Shown here: positions 1,673 to 53,197 of the stretch, piece by piece
Layout of the letters: every line of letters starts with the position of its first letter
Numbering within the stretch: the stretch's first letter is position 1
Origin: Octopus vulgaris
Taxonomy: Eukaryota
DNA length: 64,000 bases
Assembly: GCA_951406725.2 (NCBI GenBank)
Contig: OX597840.1
Span: forward strand, 38,750,001-38,814,000
Direction: 5' to 3'
The notes under the pieces: generated by a model
The model's input: only the letters and a program-made list of their open reading frames with translations
Told to the model about the DNA's origin: nothing
The model's database searches: none
Position numbers and translations under genes: made by a program

Positions 1673-2251
1673 CAGGAAAAAGAAAAAGAAAAAAAGGCTA
1701 TTGATACTGCAGTTGCCCTCTCGTTGGCTGGCGTCGGTTTTAGTAAGAGATCCAAGATTCTTAAAAACGCCAATGTTCTTATGGGCATAGTGTTCCATCT
1801 GGCCACTCTTTTGGTAAAATACGCAGATATTTATGAGGAAGCTGTGTAGTTCAAATAAACTTCAGATAAGAGCGGATAAAATATTGCATGTGCTTCTTTC
1901 TTCATAACGCATATCCTTAGTTTAGCTGCAATAGTATAACAGTAAACAAACAAGTTTTGCTGGATTCGCTGAAAAGCCTCGGTGCCACGTTCATCTGTTC
2001 GGAAAGCATTATATTCTATTATATTGCAATGTTTAACAAAAGATCTGAAATTGTGAATTCTGGCAAATTCTACCAGAAACGTTTAACAAGCAATTACCAA
2101 CTAGCAACTGGCTAGCAGATATTATTTCATACATAATACATTTATTATACCCTGCAAAATAAAACCATATTTCGAAAACACTTATATAATCAATAACACT
2201 AATATTTAGGTGATACGATTAGTTGTGGCTGTGTGGTAAGTAGCTTCTTAC

Positions 2252-4451
2252 CAGACAGATGTGCTGTTTTTTGCTCCTGCAAATGTCACGTGTTTGAACG
2301 TGAAATGTTGAACTTTTGACTCGGTGACAGGTAAGACGTTCTGTATTTTTAGAAGCATAGTGAAGTTTATTGCTTGCTTAATGTTATTTAGCAGTTAACG
2401 TTATCTAGCATTAATATTTTTTTGCGGGTAATAGACTTCACTTTACTTCAGATATATTTCTCTGCCTGTTGTCGTGTCTAAGGTCTCACTCTTTAGTGAG
2501 AATTGTGCTTTTTGAGGAGGCGTAGCCCCTCCGCAAAAATTAATTTGTTTGCTTGTGTTTTACTACTTCGCAAGAAAATTATAAAAATAAGCCACTATTG
2601 GATTACCTTTCGGACCCATTTTTGTGGCGGTTGTGTTGCAGTTGCGGCGTTCCAGGTTCAACCCAGGCCGGGAGTACCGCAAGGCCAGAATATTTTTGCT
2701 GTGTTTTTTCTGTTTATTAACTTTCTTTTGAACTTCATTTACCCCCCCCCTTTTGTTTTTTTTCTTTATTGCGACTTTCCGTTAATTTCTTCCCTTCTGT
2801 TGTACTTTCTCCTTTTTGTTTTTTCAAAAATCTATCAAATTTTATTTAGACTTTTGAACTTTTTTCTTCCTGCTTTTGAGTTTAATTTGAATATATTTTT
2901 AAAAAAACATGGCAATGAAAAATAACAAAATTTTGGAGTGGGAAATCATACCACCCAAAAAGTGGTTAAAAGACCGTGAAGATAGGACGGTGGTGTTGAG
3001 AACCTACTCCAAGGCACATGACACCATCGCCCTATTCGAAAAGACGGCAATTGAGGAGGAGTTGGAAGAGTATTTGCCAACAATTAAATTCATTTCCAGG
3101 GGTGTCAAATATGCAACGGTGTGGTTGCTATTTGACACCCCTGAAGAGGCTTGCATATTTGCTAGCAAACCCTTGGAGGGTAAGGAAATCTTATTCCTGC
3201 CCACGTACAAAAAAAAGAAATTGATGAAAGCTTGGATCTGCGGACTGCCACCCGACATAGAACCCGAGTGGATAGAGGAGACTATCCGCCGGGGTCTGGG
3301 TGACAGCGAAACTAAGCTCCTCAATGTAAAAGTTCTTCCTGCGGCTGCTTGGGTTGGGTCGAAAGCAATTTTGACTCTGTGGACACAATCAGCCATTCTG
3401 GTTCTTCCAGATTTTTTGAAAATGGCCGGGTGCAGGTACCCGGTGATGCTTGAGGGTCGCCCCCCTAAGTGTCATCGGTGCTTGGAGTCCGGCCACATAA
3501 AGAAGAACTGTCCTCGGGAACAAAATAGGATCCCGGAACAGTTAAGTAAAACCCCTCTAGAAGAGGGAACGATAACGGCCGAGAAAGCAGAGGACTCCTC
3601 AAACAGAGGCCGAAAGAGGAAGGTGAGCAACAATGGGTGCTCACCAAAGGATAATAGGGATGAGGAGAGGAAGGCGAATCTTCCAGCCACGGAGGAGACG
3701 CACCCTCCCTCAGTTGAAAAGGGAAAAAAAAAGAAAAAGAGGAAGAAAAACGGGACATTACCGGCTGTCAGTGTAGCACCGGAATGTCGCGGAACTACGT
3801 CGGTTGGGGTTGTGCCACTGACAAGAGAAGGAATACCGTTGGCGGAAACTGTGCCGCCAACGAAAGAACTAAATGTGTTGGTCCTCTTCTATAGAGGAGG
3901 AGAAATTGAAAAAGTGATGGAAGAGCACTACAAGGGAGCACCTTTAGCCTTCACACAGGACCCCGAATGGCCTCCGCAGGTAGCTGTGGAGGCCGTGGCG
4001 TTCGACGTGACGCTAGGGCTAAAGGAGCTCAACGAAGATTATAACTTGGTCCCGGGCGACGCGAACTCGGAACTTGACTACGTTCTGAGGGAGGCGTGGT
4101 TGATGGTGGAGGGCGCGGGCACAAGCTATTTCGAGGACGATATGTATTATTAGTAATGGACTTAAGTCCCAAAATTGAAAAATTGTTAGAGGATTAATAC
4201 CTCGTTTTGTATTAATAATGGACTGCTAAGCCCAAAAATTGGGAAAAATTGTAAGAGGTTTTATACCTCGTTTTGTGTTTATCTTTTTAAAAAGAACAAT
4301 GTTTTAGAGAAGCAAAAGTCGGCGGGCGCTTTCTGTCTTCTCCCATCCTTATCATCTTTCTTTCATTATCATTCACTTCATTAATGTCCTCGTCCAGCCC
4401 GCAAAGCTAACTTAATCTGTGTACTGCCTTTATGGCAAATGTTTTGAAATA
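2252..4451 (+). mobile_element. ORF1-only (HAL1-like) non-autonomous non-LTR element, copy 1, inserted into the head of a type-B SINE
   Basis: Preceded by the SINE head GTGGCTGTGTGGT-AAGTAGCTTCTTAC (TSD 2238-2251). Followed by AAGTAGCTTGCTAAC (4452-4466) and the rest of the SINE. Highly similar to 50599-52785 from 2564 onward. One long ORF, no RT, ends ...GTTTTGAAATA. Confidence 0.9.
2909..4153 (+). CDS. 414-aa ORF1/Gag-like nucleic-acid-binding protein (putative RRM-like N-terminus, CCHC zinc knuckle, basic low-complexity linker, C-terminal WPPQVA domain)
   Basis: Intact ORF with C-x2-C-x4-H-x4-C motif CHRCLESGHIKKNC preceded by LPDFLKMAG..YPVMLEGRPPK, an arrangement typical of L1/Tx1-clade ORF1. 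Contains a KKKKKRKK basic stretch. Duplicated at 51292-52532. Confidence 0.85.
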   Translation: MAMKNNKILEWEIIPPKKWLKDREDRTVVLRTYSKAHDTIALFEKTAIEEELEEYLPTIKFISRGVKYATVWLLFDTPEEACIFASKPLEGKEILFLPTYKKKKLMKAWICGLPPDIEPEWIEETIRRGLGDSETKLLNVKVLPAAAWVGSKAILTLWTQSAILVLPDFLKMAGCRYPVMLEGRPPKCHRCLESGHIKKNCPREQNRIPEQLSKTPLEEGTITAEKAEDSSNRGRKRKVSNNGCSPKDNRDEERKANLPATEETHPPSVEKGKKKKKRKKNGTLPAVSVAPECRGTTSVGVVPLTREGIPLAETVPPTKELNVLVLFYRGGEIEKVMEEHYKGAPLAFTQDPEWPPQVAVEAVAFDVTLGLKELNEDYNLVPGDANSELDYVLREAWLMVEGAGTSYFEDDMYY

Positions 4452-4827
4452 AAGTAGCTTGCTAACCAACCACATGGTTCTGGGTTCAGTCCCACTGCGT
4501 GGCATCTTGTGCAAGTTGTCTTCTGCTATAGCTCCGGGCTGACCAATTCCTTGTGAGTGGATTTGGTAGACAGAAACTGAAAGAAGCCTGTCGTATATAT
4601 GTATATATGTGTATATATGTGTGTGTTTGTCCCCCCCCCCAATATCGCTTGTCAACCGATGCTGGTGTGTTTACGTCCCCGTTACTTAGCGGTTCGGCAA
4701 AGAGACCGATAGAATATGTACTAGGCTTACAAAGAATAAGTCCCGGGGTCGATTTGCTCGACTTAAGGCGGTGCTCCAGCATGGCCGCAGTCAAATGACT
4801 GAAACGAGGAAAAGAGTAAAAGAGTAA
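4452..4827 (+). mobile_element. Type-B SINE body (head at ~2221-2251, separated by the 2.2-kb insertion)
   Basis: Matches the intact copies at 44143-44597 and 45263-45662. Ends in an (AAAAGAGT)n tail. Confidence 0.9.
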
Positions 4828-5899: not shown

Positions 5900-6510
5900 T
5901 TATTTCTTTAAATTAGCTATAAAGGCTTTACATAGATGGAAGCAAATGCGGGATGGACAACAACACAAATGAAATCAATGATGAGTAAATTAATGATGCT
6001 GATGAGGGAAACAGACGGCGCACGCCGATCGCTGCTTCCCGAAAACACTGTTCTTTTTTTCTCTTTTATAAAAACAAATTGAGGTTATAAACTACTTATT
6101 ACATAGTTCAATGGGACACAAAGTCCTTGCAAATGAGACACTAAGCCTCTTACATTTTTCCATGCTGGGCCCTATGCTCCTACAATACGAGGAAGTAAGC
6201 CTCTTGCTTTTTCCGCCCTGGCCGCACCAGACCAGGCTCAACGCGTCATTCAAGTATTTTTATTGTGCCCTGTCGGGGTGCTTCAACTGGGGGCGGAATG
6301 CGTCTTCGGGAACGGAGTTCATTTCCTTGAGCATATCCGTCCCTGACACGACCTTCGCAGCCACCTGCGGAGGCCATGCAGGGTCATCAATACAGGCTAG
6401 AAACCCTCCCCTCCGATCCTCTAGGGTAAACCTTTTCATAAATTCTTGAATTACCCCTCCCTCGTGGGAGAAGATTACAAATTCCTGCTTCACCCAGAGA
6501 GAGGCATAGT
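5900..6510 (-). mobile_element. Diverged, 5'-truncated relative of the ORF1-only element (ORF1 C-terminus plus 3' UTR)
   Basis: ORF 6260-6565(-) reads VIFSHEGGVIQEFM..LACIDDPAWPPQVAAKVV..MLKEMN, versus VLFYRGGEIEKVM..LAFTQDPEWPPQVAVEAV..GLKELN. Its downstream sequence aligns with the 3' UTR of copies 1 and 2 (AAAGAACA.TGTTTT, TCGGCG.GCGC, GTCCA.CCCGCA, GCCTTTAT.GC.AAT, GAAATAA). Confidence 0.8.
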
Positions 6511-6512
6511 TT

Positions 6513-7359
6513 GTGTCACGCATGTGCGAGCCCACAGAGTTAAAGAGACACTTACAATATTTCATTCACCGCATGCAGTTCTCAGGTTACAGCCATAAAG
6601 AAAGGATCAGAGTATACAAAGGAGCCATGAAGAAATTTGATACTATCTTATGTAATGATAGGAATGGGATTTGCCCACTCTATAGGAGCAAGTCATGGAA
6701 CACTATGGAAAGACAAAGAAAAAAATAGGGAAGGCCAACTCCTGGTATGATAGCCGTAAATACCAGAGTGTCATGTTCGTTGCCACCACCCCGGGAGGTG
6801 AACTGACGTACCGCTTTAGATGGACCCTAGACAAACTTAAGCTAAGAATTAATGTTGTTGAAAAGCCAGGCAACCCTATCAAATCTATAATTGGTAGAAC
6901 CTATCCTTTTAGTAGAACCCCCTGTACGGATAAGTACTGTACTGTTTGTAGATTTAACCCACAAACAAACTGTAAAGCCAGAAATGTAGTCTATAGTATA
7001 AGATGTATAGAGGGACGATGCAGTAACAAGACAACGGCATACGTAGGGGAAACGGCAAGAAGCATAGGAGGGCGGGTAAATGTGCATTGGAGACAACTCA
7101 AGGAAGGTAAAAGCTAATCGATTCTGTACCAACATGCCGAACAGGAACACGGGGGATCAATCAATAACATAGAAATTAAAATATTATCCACACATAGATC
7201 AGATGCAACAATTAGATAAATTACAGAAGCTACACACATAATAGAAAATAAACCTAGCCTGAATAGAAAACTAGAATGGAGCACTAACACAAACCACAAC
7301 ATATGACAATAGAGGATCCTGAAAACATAATAAATACTCAGATAAATAATAGAAATAAA

Positions 7360-49570: not shown

Positions 49571-50598
49571 TATTGTGGTCGTTCTTGTCGTTACGTCATA
49601 GCGCTCCATGCTATTCCTTTTCTTTCCACGTAGAATTTTTCCCATTTTTCCTAAATGGTGTTTGGTTTTATTATTTATTAATTTTTCTAATTACCAATAT
49701 TTCTCAAATTCCTTGAGGTAGCATTTGTAATGTCTTTTTTTTATTTTTGATATTTTCTCATTTTTCCTGCCAAAACTAAGTTTGAATTCATTGCTGCTTT
49801 TTAATCAAGAGATACATGTATATCATTAGTTCTCTATTTAAAGGTCGTTCGACTTTGATGTGACTAAAATCTGATCAAAGTCATTTTAAAACTGTCACCG
49901 CCAGGACTCTTTTCCAGGTAAATGTGTACAGAATTACATTTACAAAGAATTTTCTTTCTAAAATCACGCATTCAAGTGATTGACTGGACTATCGGATTTT
50001 GTTATGCATCGCTGGTTACAGTACTCTTTGCATACTTTCAGCTTTCAAAAGATCTTCCTTGCTGGCTAGGCCGGCGGGTCAACATTCTCTCTGATGAGAA
50101 TGGTAACCTGTCACTGGGTTACCCATTTGCAGTTGAAGTAACTTGACCAACACGAAATGAAGTGTTTTTGTAAGTAGCACAACGTTCCGCCGGGCTGGAA
50201 ATCGAAACAGCGATCTCCCGATCAGGGATGATTCAATTGCTATTTCTCACAAAGCGATCAGCAATTTAGTCACCGTCGTCAACGGGTACCTCGCCTTCAA
50301 ACATTGGTTGATTAACTCACTGATTCACTGTCTCAGTAATTGATTGACGTGTTTACCCCAGACACATTTCTAGCCAAAATGTGCTACACCTTTAAACCTT
50401 GTAATTTGTGTTGCTGAGCGCAGAGATTCGAAACAACATATCTAGGATTACATCAATGCATCTGCTGCTTTGAAAGACGATAAGGAGAAACTTAACGGAA
50501 TGCTGACGTTTATTATTAGAAGATCAATGCACCAATCATACGCTAAATAAATTTCTAGTAAGGAGCAGGAGTGGCTGTGTGGTAAGTAGCTTGCTAAC

Positions 50599-52785
50599 AC
50601 ACATGCGCAGTTAGTCAGTTGCTTCCTGTTAAGCCAGAGTGGACGCGAGTCAACCAGCTCCGTCCAATTAAAGAAAAAAGATCAAAAACGGAAAGTTGTC
50701 GAGGTAAGTGATTTTGTTTATTGTGAGTTGGGCATAATTTATTGCGTGCCAATTATTATTTCAGTAAGTTGTGTCCAACTCTGAGACAATTTCGCCTGCT
50801 CTCGGCGGCTGCCGTTTTTGTGTTTATTGAAAAAAAAAAACAGTGGAGGGGCGTATCCTCGGAATTCAATACAGTTACTGTTAAAATTACCGTTGGCGGT
50901 AGCCAGAGCTATGTTTGGGTTTGTTGAACTTATTCTCTTGTCAGAGTACTTCGCAAGAAAATTATAAAAATAAGCCACTATTGGATTACCTTTCGGACCC
51001 ATTTTTGTGGAGGTTGTGTTGCAGTTGCGGCGTTCCAGGTTCAACCCAGGCCGGGAGTACCGCAAGGCCAGAATATTTTTGCTGTGTTTTTTCTGTTTAT
51101 TAACTTTCTTTTGAACTTCATTTAACTCCCCCTTTTGTTTTTTTTTCTTTATTGCGACTTTCGGTTGATTTCTTCCCTACTGTTGTGCTTTCTCCTTTTT
51201 GTTTTTTCAAAAATCTATCAAATTTTATTTGGACTTTTGAACTTTTTTCTTCTTGCTTTTTGAGTTTAATTTGAATATATTTTAAAAAAACATGGCAATG
51301 AAAAATAACAAAATTTTGGAATGGGAGATCATACCGCCTAAAAAGTGGTTAAAAGACCGTGAAGATAGGACGGTGGTGTTGAGAACCTACTCCAAGGCAC
51401 TCGACACCATCACCCTATTCGAAAAGACGGCAATTGAAAAAGAGTTGGAAGAGTATTTGCCAACAATTAAATTCATTTCCAGGGGTGTCAAATATGCAAC
51501 GGTGTGGTTGCTATTTGACACCCCTGAAGAGGCTTGCAAATTTGCTAGCAAACCCCTGGAGGGTAAGGAAATCTTATTCCTGCCCACGTACAAAAAAAGA
51601 AATTGATGAAAGCTTGGATTTGCGGGCTGCCACCCGACATAGAACCCGAGTGGATAGAGGAGACTATCCGCCGGGGTCTGGGTGGCAGCGAAACTAAGCT
51701 CCTTAATGTAAAAGTTCTTCCTGCGGCTGCTTGGGTTGGGTCAAAATCAATTTTGACCCTGTGGACCCAATCAGCCAATCTGGTTCTTCCAGATTTTTTG
51801 AAAATGGCCGGGTGCAGGTACCCGGTGATGCTTGAGGTTCGCCCCCCTAAGTGTCATCGGTGCTTGGAGCCCAGCCACATAAAGAAGAACTGTCCTCGGG
51901 AACAAAATAGGATCCCGGAACAGTTAAGTAAAACCCCTCTAGAAGAGGGAACGATAACGGCCGAGAAAGCAGAGGACTCCTCAAACAGAGGCCGAAAGAG
52001 GAAGGTGAGCAACAATGGGTGCTCACCAAAGGATAATAGGGATGAGGAGAGGAAGGCGAATCTTCCAGCCACGGAGGAGACGCACCCTCCCTCAGTTGAA
52101 AAGGGAAAAAAAAAGAAAAAGAGGAAGAGAAACGGGACATTACCGGCTGTCAGTGTAGCACCGGAATGTCCCGGAACAACGTCGGTTGGGGTTGTGCCAC
52201 CGACAAGAGAAGGGATACCATTGGCGGGAACTGTGCCGCCAACGAAAGAACTGAACGTATTGGTCCTCTTCTATAGAGAAGGAGAAATTGAAAAAAAAAT
52301 GATGGAAGAGCACTACAAGGGAGCACCTTTAGCCTTCACACAGGACCCCGAATGGCCTCCGCAGGTAGCTGTGGAGGCCGTGGCGTTCGGCGTGACGCTT
52401 GGGCTAAAGGAGCTCAATGAAGATTATAGCTTGGTCCCGGGCGACGCGAACTCGGAACTTGATTACGTTCTGAGGGAGGCGTGGTTGATGGTGGAGGGCG
52501 CGGGCACAAGCTATTTCGAGGACGATATGTAATTATTGAACTGTTAGTATTTATAATGGACTGCTAAGTCCAAAAATTGAAAAATTGTAAGAGGCTTAAT
52601 ACCTCGTTTTGTGTTTATCTTTAAAAAGAACAATGTTTTAGAGAAGCGAAAGTCGGCGGGCGCTTTTTGTCTTCTCCCATCCTTATCATCTGTCTTTCCT
52701 TAACATTCACTTCATTAATGTCCTCGTCCAGCCCGCAAAGCTAACTTAATCTGTGTACTGCCTTTATGGCAAATGTTTTGAAATA
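50599..52785 (+). mobile_element. ORF1-only (HAL1-like) non-autonomous non-LTR element, copy 2, inserted at the same SINE position
   Basis: Perfect 15-bp TSD AAGTAGCTTGCTAAC at 50584-50598 and 52786-52800. SINE head at 50561-50598 and SINE remainder at 52786-53197. Same 3' end as copy 1. Confidence 0.92.
51292..52532 (+). pseudogene. Second copy of the ORF1-like gene, split by a 1-bp deletion in an A-run
   Basis: ORFs 51292-51606 and 51603-52532 together match the 414-aa protein. The A8 run in copy 1 (TACAAAAAAAAG) is A7 here (51592-51598). The knuckle reads CHRCLEPSHIKKNC. The frameshift could be a homopolymer sequencing error. Confidence 0.8.
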
Positions 52786-53197
52786 AAGTAGCTTGCTAAC
52801 CAACCACATGGTTCCGGGTTCAGTCCCACTGCGTGGCATCTTGGGCAAGTGTCTTCTGCTATAGCCCCGGGCCGACCAATGCCTTGTGAGTGGATTTGGT
52901 AGACGGAACTGAAAGAAGCCTGTCGTATATATGTATATATATATATATATCTGTGTGTGTGTGTGTATGTGTGTGTGTTTGTGTGTCTGTGTTTATCCCC
53001 CTAGCATTGCTTGACAACCGATGCTGGTGTGTTTACGTCCCCGTCACTTAGCGGTTCGGCAAAAGAGACCGATGGAATAAGAACTGGGCTTACAAAGAAT
53101 AAGTCCCGGGGTCGATTTGCTCGACTTAAGGCGGTGCTCCAGCATGGCCGCAGTCAAATGACTGAAACAAACAAAAGAGTAAAAGAGTATAAAAGAG
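52786..53197 (+). mobile_element. Type-B SINE body (head at 50561-50598)
   Basis: Continues exactly from the TSD. Confidence 0.9.

Follow-up and report, generated by a model that had tools for sequence, protein, structure and literature searches.

Two near-identical retroelements, copies A and B, were found in the window (the whole stretch of 64,000 nt of Octopus vulgaris DNA analysed here), carrying the same body behind 5' leaders that do not align. Both are non-autonomous, ORF1-only passengers of an L1-group LINE and not autonomous L1s. We consider it reasonably probable that this LINE targets a SINE and that one passenger body has received different 5' modules of sibling families, likely exchanged by reverse transcriptase (RT) switching between co-active RNAs, with the modules as putative internal Pol II promoters. 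The two copies are organised as follows, with the forward strand marked as +.

2222..2237 (left edge approximate), +: SINE head of copy A, i.e., the 5' part of a tRNA-like SINE, matching other SINE copies of the window
2238..2251, +: duplicated target AAGTAGCTT and the family-specific, target-like CTTAC; the 5' junctions of most A copies read CTTCTTAC and the 3' junctions CTTG.., and the RNA probably brought the CTTAC bases along at its 5' end
2252..2563, +: leader A, short form, the swapped 5' module, 97-98% identical to the leaders of MATKETT-type bodies at L129 and L130
2257-2263, 2285-2292, 2329-2335 and 2509-2539, +: motifs of leader A, respectively a mutated DPE-like AGATGTG, GTCACGTG, a donor-like AG/GTAAG and a hairpin
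2564..2908, +: shared 5' UTR of the body; its start is the 3' arm of a second, degenerate GGCGTA hairpin
2909..4153, +: intact ORF1 of 414 aa that comprises two predicted RRMs, one CCHC knuckle and a C-terminal part that varies; not followed by an ORF2
4154..4451, +: 3' UTR with a conserved stem-loop, a predicted loop/downstream pairing (4321-4328 with 4396-4402) and a terminal tail common with the autonomous LINE
4452..4817 (right edge approximate), +: 3' target copy (4452-4466) and SINE remainder of copy A
50564..50583, +: SINE head of copy B
50584..50598, +: 5' copy of the 15-nt target-site duplication AAGTAGCTTGCTAAC, identical to 52786-52800
50599..50946, +: leader B
50602-50609, 50611-50615 and 50641-50647, +: motifs of leader B, respectively CATGCGCA, an Inr-like TTAGT and a DPE-like GGACGCG, 28 nt past the A
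50702-50708 and 50846-50860, +: further motifs of leader B, respectively a donor-like AG/GTAAG and a hairpin
50947..52785, +: body of copy B, with ORF1 from 51292 to 52532 broken by a one-base loss in an A run near 51592-51598
52786..53190 (right edge approximate), +: 3' target copy (52786-52800) and SINE remainder of copy B

The preliminary description had placed an abrupt onset of similarity at 2564/50947. Indeed, BLASTN returned a single alignment that begins exactly there and runs through the body to the end of the SINE tail (2120/2298, 92%), while the sole match between the two copies upstream of this point is the 33-nt SINE head. The leaders (2252-2563 and 50599-50946) were compared with 300 dinucleotide shuffles on the forward strand. 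Their local alignment scores were equalled by 6, 46 and 13 of the 300 shuffles and their global scores by 53, 24 and 97, so that their likeness is at most marginal, in agreement with the earlier statement that they cannot be aligned. The landmarks reported for the leaders were recovered, namely the GTAAG motifs (2329-2335 and 50702-50708), the GGCGTA hairpins (2519 and 50850) and the transcription factor-like motifs (GTCACGTG at 2285, CATGCGCA at 50602 and GCTTCCTG at 50621). The terminal ACA(G/C)ATG(T/C)GC said to be common to both leaders is present, and part of this resemblance is accidental, since other leader-A copies read ACAGACGTGT and copy A is privately changed there. The preliminary description made no mention of the insertion site: both copies, which are ~2.2 kb long with one ORF of ~414 aa each (frameshifted in copy B), interrupt one SINE at the same base, and the target AAGTAGCTT(GCTAAC) is duplicated at both (2238/4452; 50584/52786).

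The insertion site is fixed. Among 30 loci chosen by the body alone, 29/30 5' junctions adjoin the SINE head or the 3' end of a further member of the family; the 3' end, found in 28 cases, leads into the SINE tail in every one. A pattern joining the 3' tail to the target had 1,119 genomic matches against 1 in the control, and the empty SINE target site occurs at least 61,686 times in the genome. Marks of retrotransposition are present, with the 15-nt duplication of copy B and with 5' truncated copies. Four loci (L217, L224, L198 and L227) have truncated copies of 154-341 nt placed immediately after the SINE head, which makes the elements independent insertions and not parts of a composite SINE. 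This one SINE site serves several diverged ORF1-only families as well as two or more autonomous subfamilies, often stacked head to tail. The SINE is presumably tRNA-like, as we judge from motifs resembling an A-box and a B-box that were spotted by eye; a scan of the 64-kb window with ARAGORN gave no tRNA. At another locus (L203, G000:C1:111116891-111116968), a tiny insertion at the target is made up of the 3' tail twice, once inverted and once direct. Besides the two copies, the window holds a diverged fragment of the family's 3' part (5912-6510, reverse strand, 71%), which adjoins an endonuclease-like fragment at ~6600-7300, read by eye.

The protein encoded by these elements is predicted to consist of two RRMs and a CCHC knuckle. 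The structure model of the first 210 residues (pLDDT 82) matches tandem-RRM proteins, and the zf-CCHC match is weak (E 0.0078, below the Pfam cut-off). The ORF1-only families differ by 30-50% in protein, and the protein relatives are octopod. Between these families, dN was 0.19-0.34 and dS 1.05-3.6 (nine sibling sequences), i.e., a dN/dS of about 0.1-0.2, and ORF1 has thus evolved under purifying selection. An inverted repeat within ORF1 (3097-3143 and 51480-51526), CAGGGGTGTCAAATA ... TATTTGACACCCCTG, gives a long potential RNA stem in the coding sequence. In the same kind of array, the autonomous element L140 encodes an ORF2 of 1140 aa with APE, RT and zf-RVT domains (Pfam) and has the terminal tail in common with the passengers. 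The best PDB match of the autonomous ORF2 is LINE-1 ORF2 (E 7e-66; R2, 8e-22), and full as well as truncated autonomous copies occupy the same SINE site. Architecture and targeting would place this L1-group partner in the Tx1 clade; no named Tx1 reference was among the matches of the protein searches. To judge from the common tail and target, the L140-type LINE in particular may be what mobilises the passengers. The ORF1 of the window is 26-28% identical to that of the autonomous elements over ~200 aa. Another ORF1-like sequence in an array (L124:3292-3855, reverse strand) has just 28% identity with the window ORF1 and does not resemble that of L140.

Several features were noted in the 3' UTR. 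In many ORF1-only families, a hairpin loop GCGGGC is complementary to a downstream GCCCGC (window 4321-4328/4396-4402 and 52655-52662/52730-52736), and this pairing is likely a pseudoknot. Paired changes occur in a few copies (L225, L202), which could equally be CpG decay. The pairing was not found in the autonomous 3' UTRs examined. Passengers and autonomous elements have in common an AAGCTA(C) ~45 nt before the 3' end (4404-4410 and 52738-52744), complementary to the TAGCTT of the target. A known ribozyme was considered for copy A and rejected, an Rfam scan giving nothing near the gathering score.

None of the leaders A, B and C is confined to a single body. When the best 40 of 271-316 candidates were scored per leader, 33 of the leader A matches were 96-100% identical and 7 were 82-87% identical, and the leader B matches were 94-100% identical in 40/40 cases. 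Both are thus multi-copy, and neither is the unique insertion that the preliminary description had envisaged as a counter-case. A 24-mer across the breakpoint had 170 exact genomic matches and 0 in the control. The first 30 of these matches carried leader B (21), leader A (7) or a third leader, C (2), so that the number of leader types joined to the window body at this same point, which had been left to be counted, is three. Among 137 de-duplicated elements, a set biased by the searches, the window body carries leader A in 24 cases, B in 65, C in 6 and C' in 1, and its MATKETT sibling body carries A-type leaders in 5 and C in 13. Donor families can thus be named for leader A, present on the MATKETT body, and for leader C, present on a UTR of its own and on the MATKETT body. 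The switch is sharp at L129, which is 97-100% identical to window copy A per 100 nt across the first 300 nt and about 70% thereafter. In a tree of the 96 elements that retain 1,150 nt of body, the bodies with A and those with C fall within the B bodies, with mostly low supports, and leader A is found on three body haplotypes. Leader A copies are the youngest, with a leader identity of 99.2% vs. 96.9-97.8%. Relatives of each leader type, 66-87% identical, are present on further bodies of the same lineage. The nesting of the bodies, the three leaders on one body and the presence of leader A on a second one support the modular exchange from diverged sibling families put forward in the preliminary description. 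Short and long 5' forms, ~9 nt apart, exist in several A-type and C-type leaders (L182, L212 and L002 vs. L183 and L121; L136 vs. L088).

Further family switches were observed in the 5' UTR and in ORF1. At L120, B passes into C within a shared 11-nt GGGGCGTATCC and ORF1 is B1-like again, i.e., a double switch. The family changes inside ORF1 at L126, a C 5' part, cut short, is joined to a B element without its first 70 nt at L023, and the opening ~30 nt of L172 are those of the autonomous element L140. Both donors of L023, L120 and L130 are young, because every part of these chimeras is close to other copies (0-7 mismatches per 250 nt from the nearest other copy, in windows covered by a neighbour). 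The window breakpoint lies in the loop of the degenerate second GGCGTA hairpin, which is intact in older relatives (L178), and is one of two junctions with a microhomology of just 1-2 nt. Four-gamete incompatibility showed no increase with distance and is not clean recombination evidence. The same pair, a C leader on a MATKETT body followed by a B2 leader on the window body, is present at four loci on three contigs (L136, L137, L138 and L139), which suggests co-insertion from read-through RNA or serial template jumps. One array (L229-L230, G000:C1:223689161-223709000) consists of seven units of ~2 kb, 99.3-100% identical (six compared), and is closed by an element of a second autonomous subfamily, which has another 5' UTR.

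Do these patterns require an exchange at all? If the leaders were one homologous region that diverged fast in front of a body kept uniform by conservation or gene conversion, no swap would be needed, and the leaders are probably homologous at depth, given their common motif order and weak profile matches. However, bodies that are 2-6% different carry leaders that cannot be aligned, the junctions are sharp, and leader A is conserved at 97-98% in front of bodies whose ORF1 is 69% identical, which largely refutes this explanation; wholesale conversion of bodies would moreover be an exchange too. We regard it as the least probable of all. A recent capture of host first exons and intron starts, by template switch or splicing, is hardly more credible. 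Every leader does resemble a first exon followed by GTAAG, with transcription factor-like motifs, and capture of host promoters by human L1 is documented (PMC13174262). Against this, the leader matches fetched lie at the SINE target before element bodies: 10/10 further matches of leader A are at the target with the family ORF1 after them, 30/30 matches of leader B are followed by the body, and 29/30 matches of the diverged B' leader are at the target, with an ORF1 match downstream in 22/30. No single-copy host gene start matching a leader was seen among the fetched matches, from the best 40 of 271-316 candidates scored per leader. The 66-87% identical relatives of each leader type lie inside the lineage, and one motif layout is kept in all types. 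A profile comparison of the leader types mostly gave no homology, with a few weak cross-type matches, up to 12.4 bits, scoring above all 100 shuffles. A-type leaders moreover resemble the start of the autonomous 5' UTR (8.8 bits, equalled by 0/100 profile shuffles). The host first exons offered as one origin in the preliminary description are hence an unlikely source, at least recently, and the other origin that it named, diverged subfamilies, agrees with the exchange between co-active sibling families that these sequence comparisons support.

As for the route of exchange, a swap at the DNA level has to be weighed. New cDNA could anneal to a resident element upstream at the common landing site and replace its body, or deletion or gene conversion could fuse neighbours of an array. 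Such fusion is still plausible in view of how often elements are stacked: arrays that mix families are common, and 9/70 distinct contig-1 3' junction sequences run into another element, with identical array junctions collapsed, vs. roughly 2% expected from the 1,119 element ends and the at least 61,686 empty sites. The structure of L023, a shortened C element joined to a B element without its first 70 nt, also fits, and heteroduplex formation at the insertion site is listed among the mechanisms in the accessible text on mouse L1 (PMC3600994). On the other hand, the chimeras checked have equally young 5' and 3' parts, and one deletion cannot give a double switch (L120/L204). We hold DNA-level exchange to be rather unlikely as the main route, with the reservation that it could yield the same products. 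Strand switching between co-active RNAs fits best, because the parents are young and because of the double switch, and RT template switching is in our view the likeliest mechanism; a point against it is that two junctions, the window breakpoint among them, offer a microhomology of just 1-2 nt. For mouse L1, three models have been listed, which include strand switching and fusion at the insertion site, and strand switching is the one said to predict young donors on both sides (PMC3600994).

Under template switching, the autonomous ORF2 protein would nick the SINE on the bottom strand (TT/A) and copy the passenger RNA via the common 3' tail. During copying, it may jump to the RNA of another family at short homologies or hairpins, and a young body would thereby gain a foreign 5' end. 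Chimeras that acquire a working promoter could then found new subfamilies, a possible example being leader A on the window body, where the leaders are 99.2% identical to each other. The promoter would be of the Inr+DPE type known from Drosophila LINEs.

The leaders have one layout in common. In all types, RGACG(T/C)G is followed 50-80 nt later by AGGTARG and then by a hairpin with a CRUAK loop (GG-CRUAK-CC), the stem of which varies between families. RGACGTG fits the DPE consensus of the Drosophila elements Doc, F, G, I and jockey, a consensus drawn from flies and reported at about +29 in the accessible part of the source (PMC1636488); another partly accessible source places the DPE at +28 to +32 from the initiator A (PMC8384218). 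AGT stands 27-28 nt upstream of the RGACG motif in 15/25 chosen leaders; as the leaders are related, these 15 do not count as independent cases. The other 10/25 lack this Inr spacing, and they include the four short-A leaders, a type to which window copy A belongs, together with B' and several C' leaders. In long-A leaders and in the autonomous L140, the AGT at the right spacing is the target's own. On the basis of these motifs, the leaders are putative internal Pol II promoters. Leaders B and C do not fit a simple internal-start model, since their predicted start is ~15-25 nt inside the element and copies nevertheless keep the upstream bases. The first 15 nt are target-like, in family-specific variants, which suggests that the element RNA starts within the target-like stretch. 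A tentative extension, which we would call possible and no better than doubtful, is a split promoter that enforces targeting. The SINE target would provide the initiator (TAAGT), and the L140-type LINE and long-A passengers would bring the DPE at +28, so that only correctly targeted or stacked copies would be transcribed. B and C would have evolved their own initiator, and the passengers, with their landing site and RNP in common, would form one recombining pool trading promoter types.

The donor-like AGGTARG is conserved across leader types. It is read through unspliced in leader A (contig X1 2234-2546, from a run guessed to be RNA) and in leader B (contigs of four runs guessed to be RNA). 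No GT..AG joint at the donor-like sites was present in the contigs of the five runs guessed to be RNA, a result compatible with splicing as well as with its absence. In the genome, the exon-end pattern with a base other than G next had 0 copies, and a search for spliced B copies gave matches at chance level with a loose pattern and 0 with tighter ones. A candidate intron of ~60 nt in A, B and C was discarded, the acceptor AG not being kept across A-type families.

HeT-A encodes only ORF1. The mammalian half-L1 HAL1 is likewise a non-autonomous LINE derivative coding only ORF1p, according to the accessible part of its description (PMC5753468). The octopus elements differ from it in a predicted two-RRM and CCHC ORF1, no poly(A) tail in the DNA, a specific target and several deeply diverged families, and with octopod protein relatives and a CCHC knuckle they are not HAL1 proper. 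5' UTR swapping itself is already known from mouse L1 and plant RTE elements. In mouse L1, as far as the accessible text goes (PMC3600994), 5' ends pass between simultaneously active families, recombination occurs over the whole element and strand switching is proposed. These L1s are autonomous and not site-specific, whereas the octopus elements are non-autonomous and ORF1-only at one target, with donors and recipients readable in the genome. The SolRTE LINEs of Nicotiana also have exchangeable 5' UTRs, a conserved body and a conserved 3' motif; unlike the octopus elements, they are autonomous members of the RTE clade, with no target specificity described in the part of the report available (bioRxiv 10.1101/2022.11.04.512097). 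Transposon-targeting LINEs of the Tx1 clade, with Xenopus Tx1 in Tx1D and crocodilian Tx1-Mar and SINEU-3 in Mariner-N4_AMi, resemble the octopus system in their site-specific insertion into a transposon, duplications of ~15 nt, tandem insertions around the duplication and non-autonomous passengers at the same target (PMC4494074). The octopus system differs in its tRNA-like SINE target and protein-coding passengers, and leader exchange is not described in the accessible part of that account. Drosophila HeT-A/TART, Doc, F, G, I and jockey offer head-to-tail arrays with read-through, a flank that helps HeT-A start and the DPE RGWCGTKY at about +29; as far as this source is accessible, they are telomeric or jockey-group elements with promoter activity shown by experiment, whereas the octopus promoter is predicted only (PMC1636488). 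The accessible part of a repeat annotation of O. vulgaris counts 13 recently active L1-Tx1 families (PMC13282606). No account of leader or module exchange among SINE-targeting ORF1-only elements was met in the literature searched, largely at the level of abstracts, and Repbase, Dfam or the supplements of PMC13282606 may hold these families.

It is still debated how LINEs acquire new 5' UTRs, the proposed routes being recombination of DNA, annealing where the element inserts, strand switching and capture from the host (PMC3600994, PMC13174262). In the octopus elements, which are short (2 kb) and inserted at a fixed site, the donors and recipients, the breakpoints and the single-locus chimeras are all young and can be found within one genome, so that these models can be compared by counting. 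If the target does supply the initiator, target specificity would be linked to expression.
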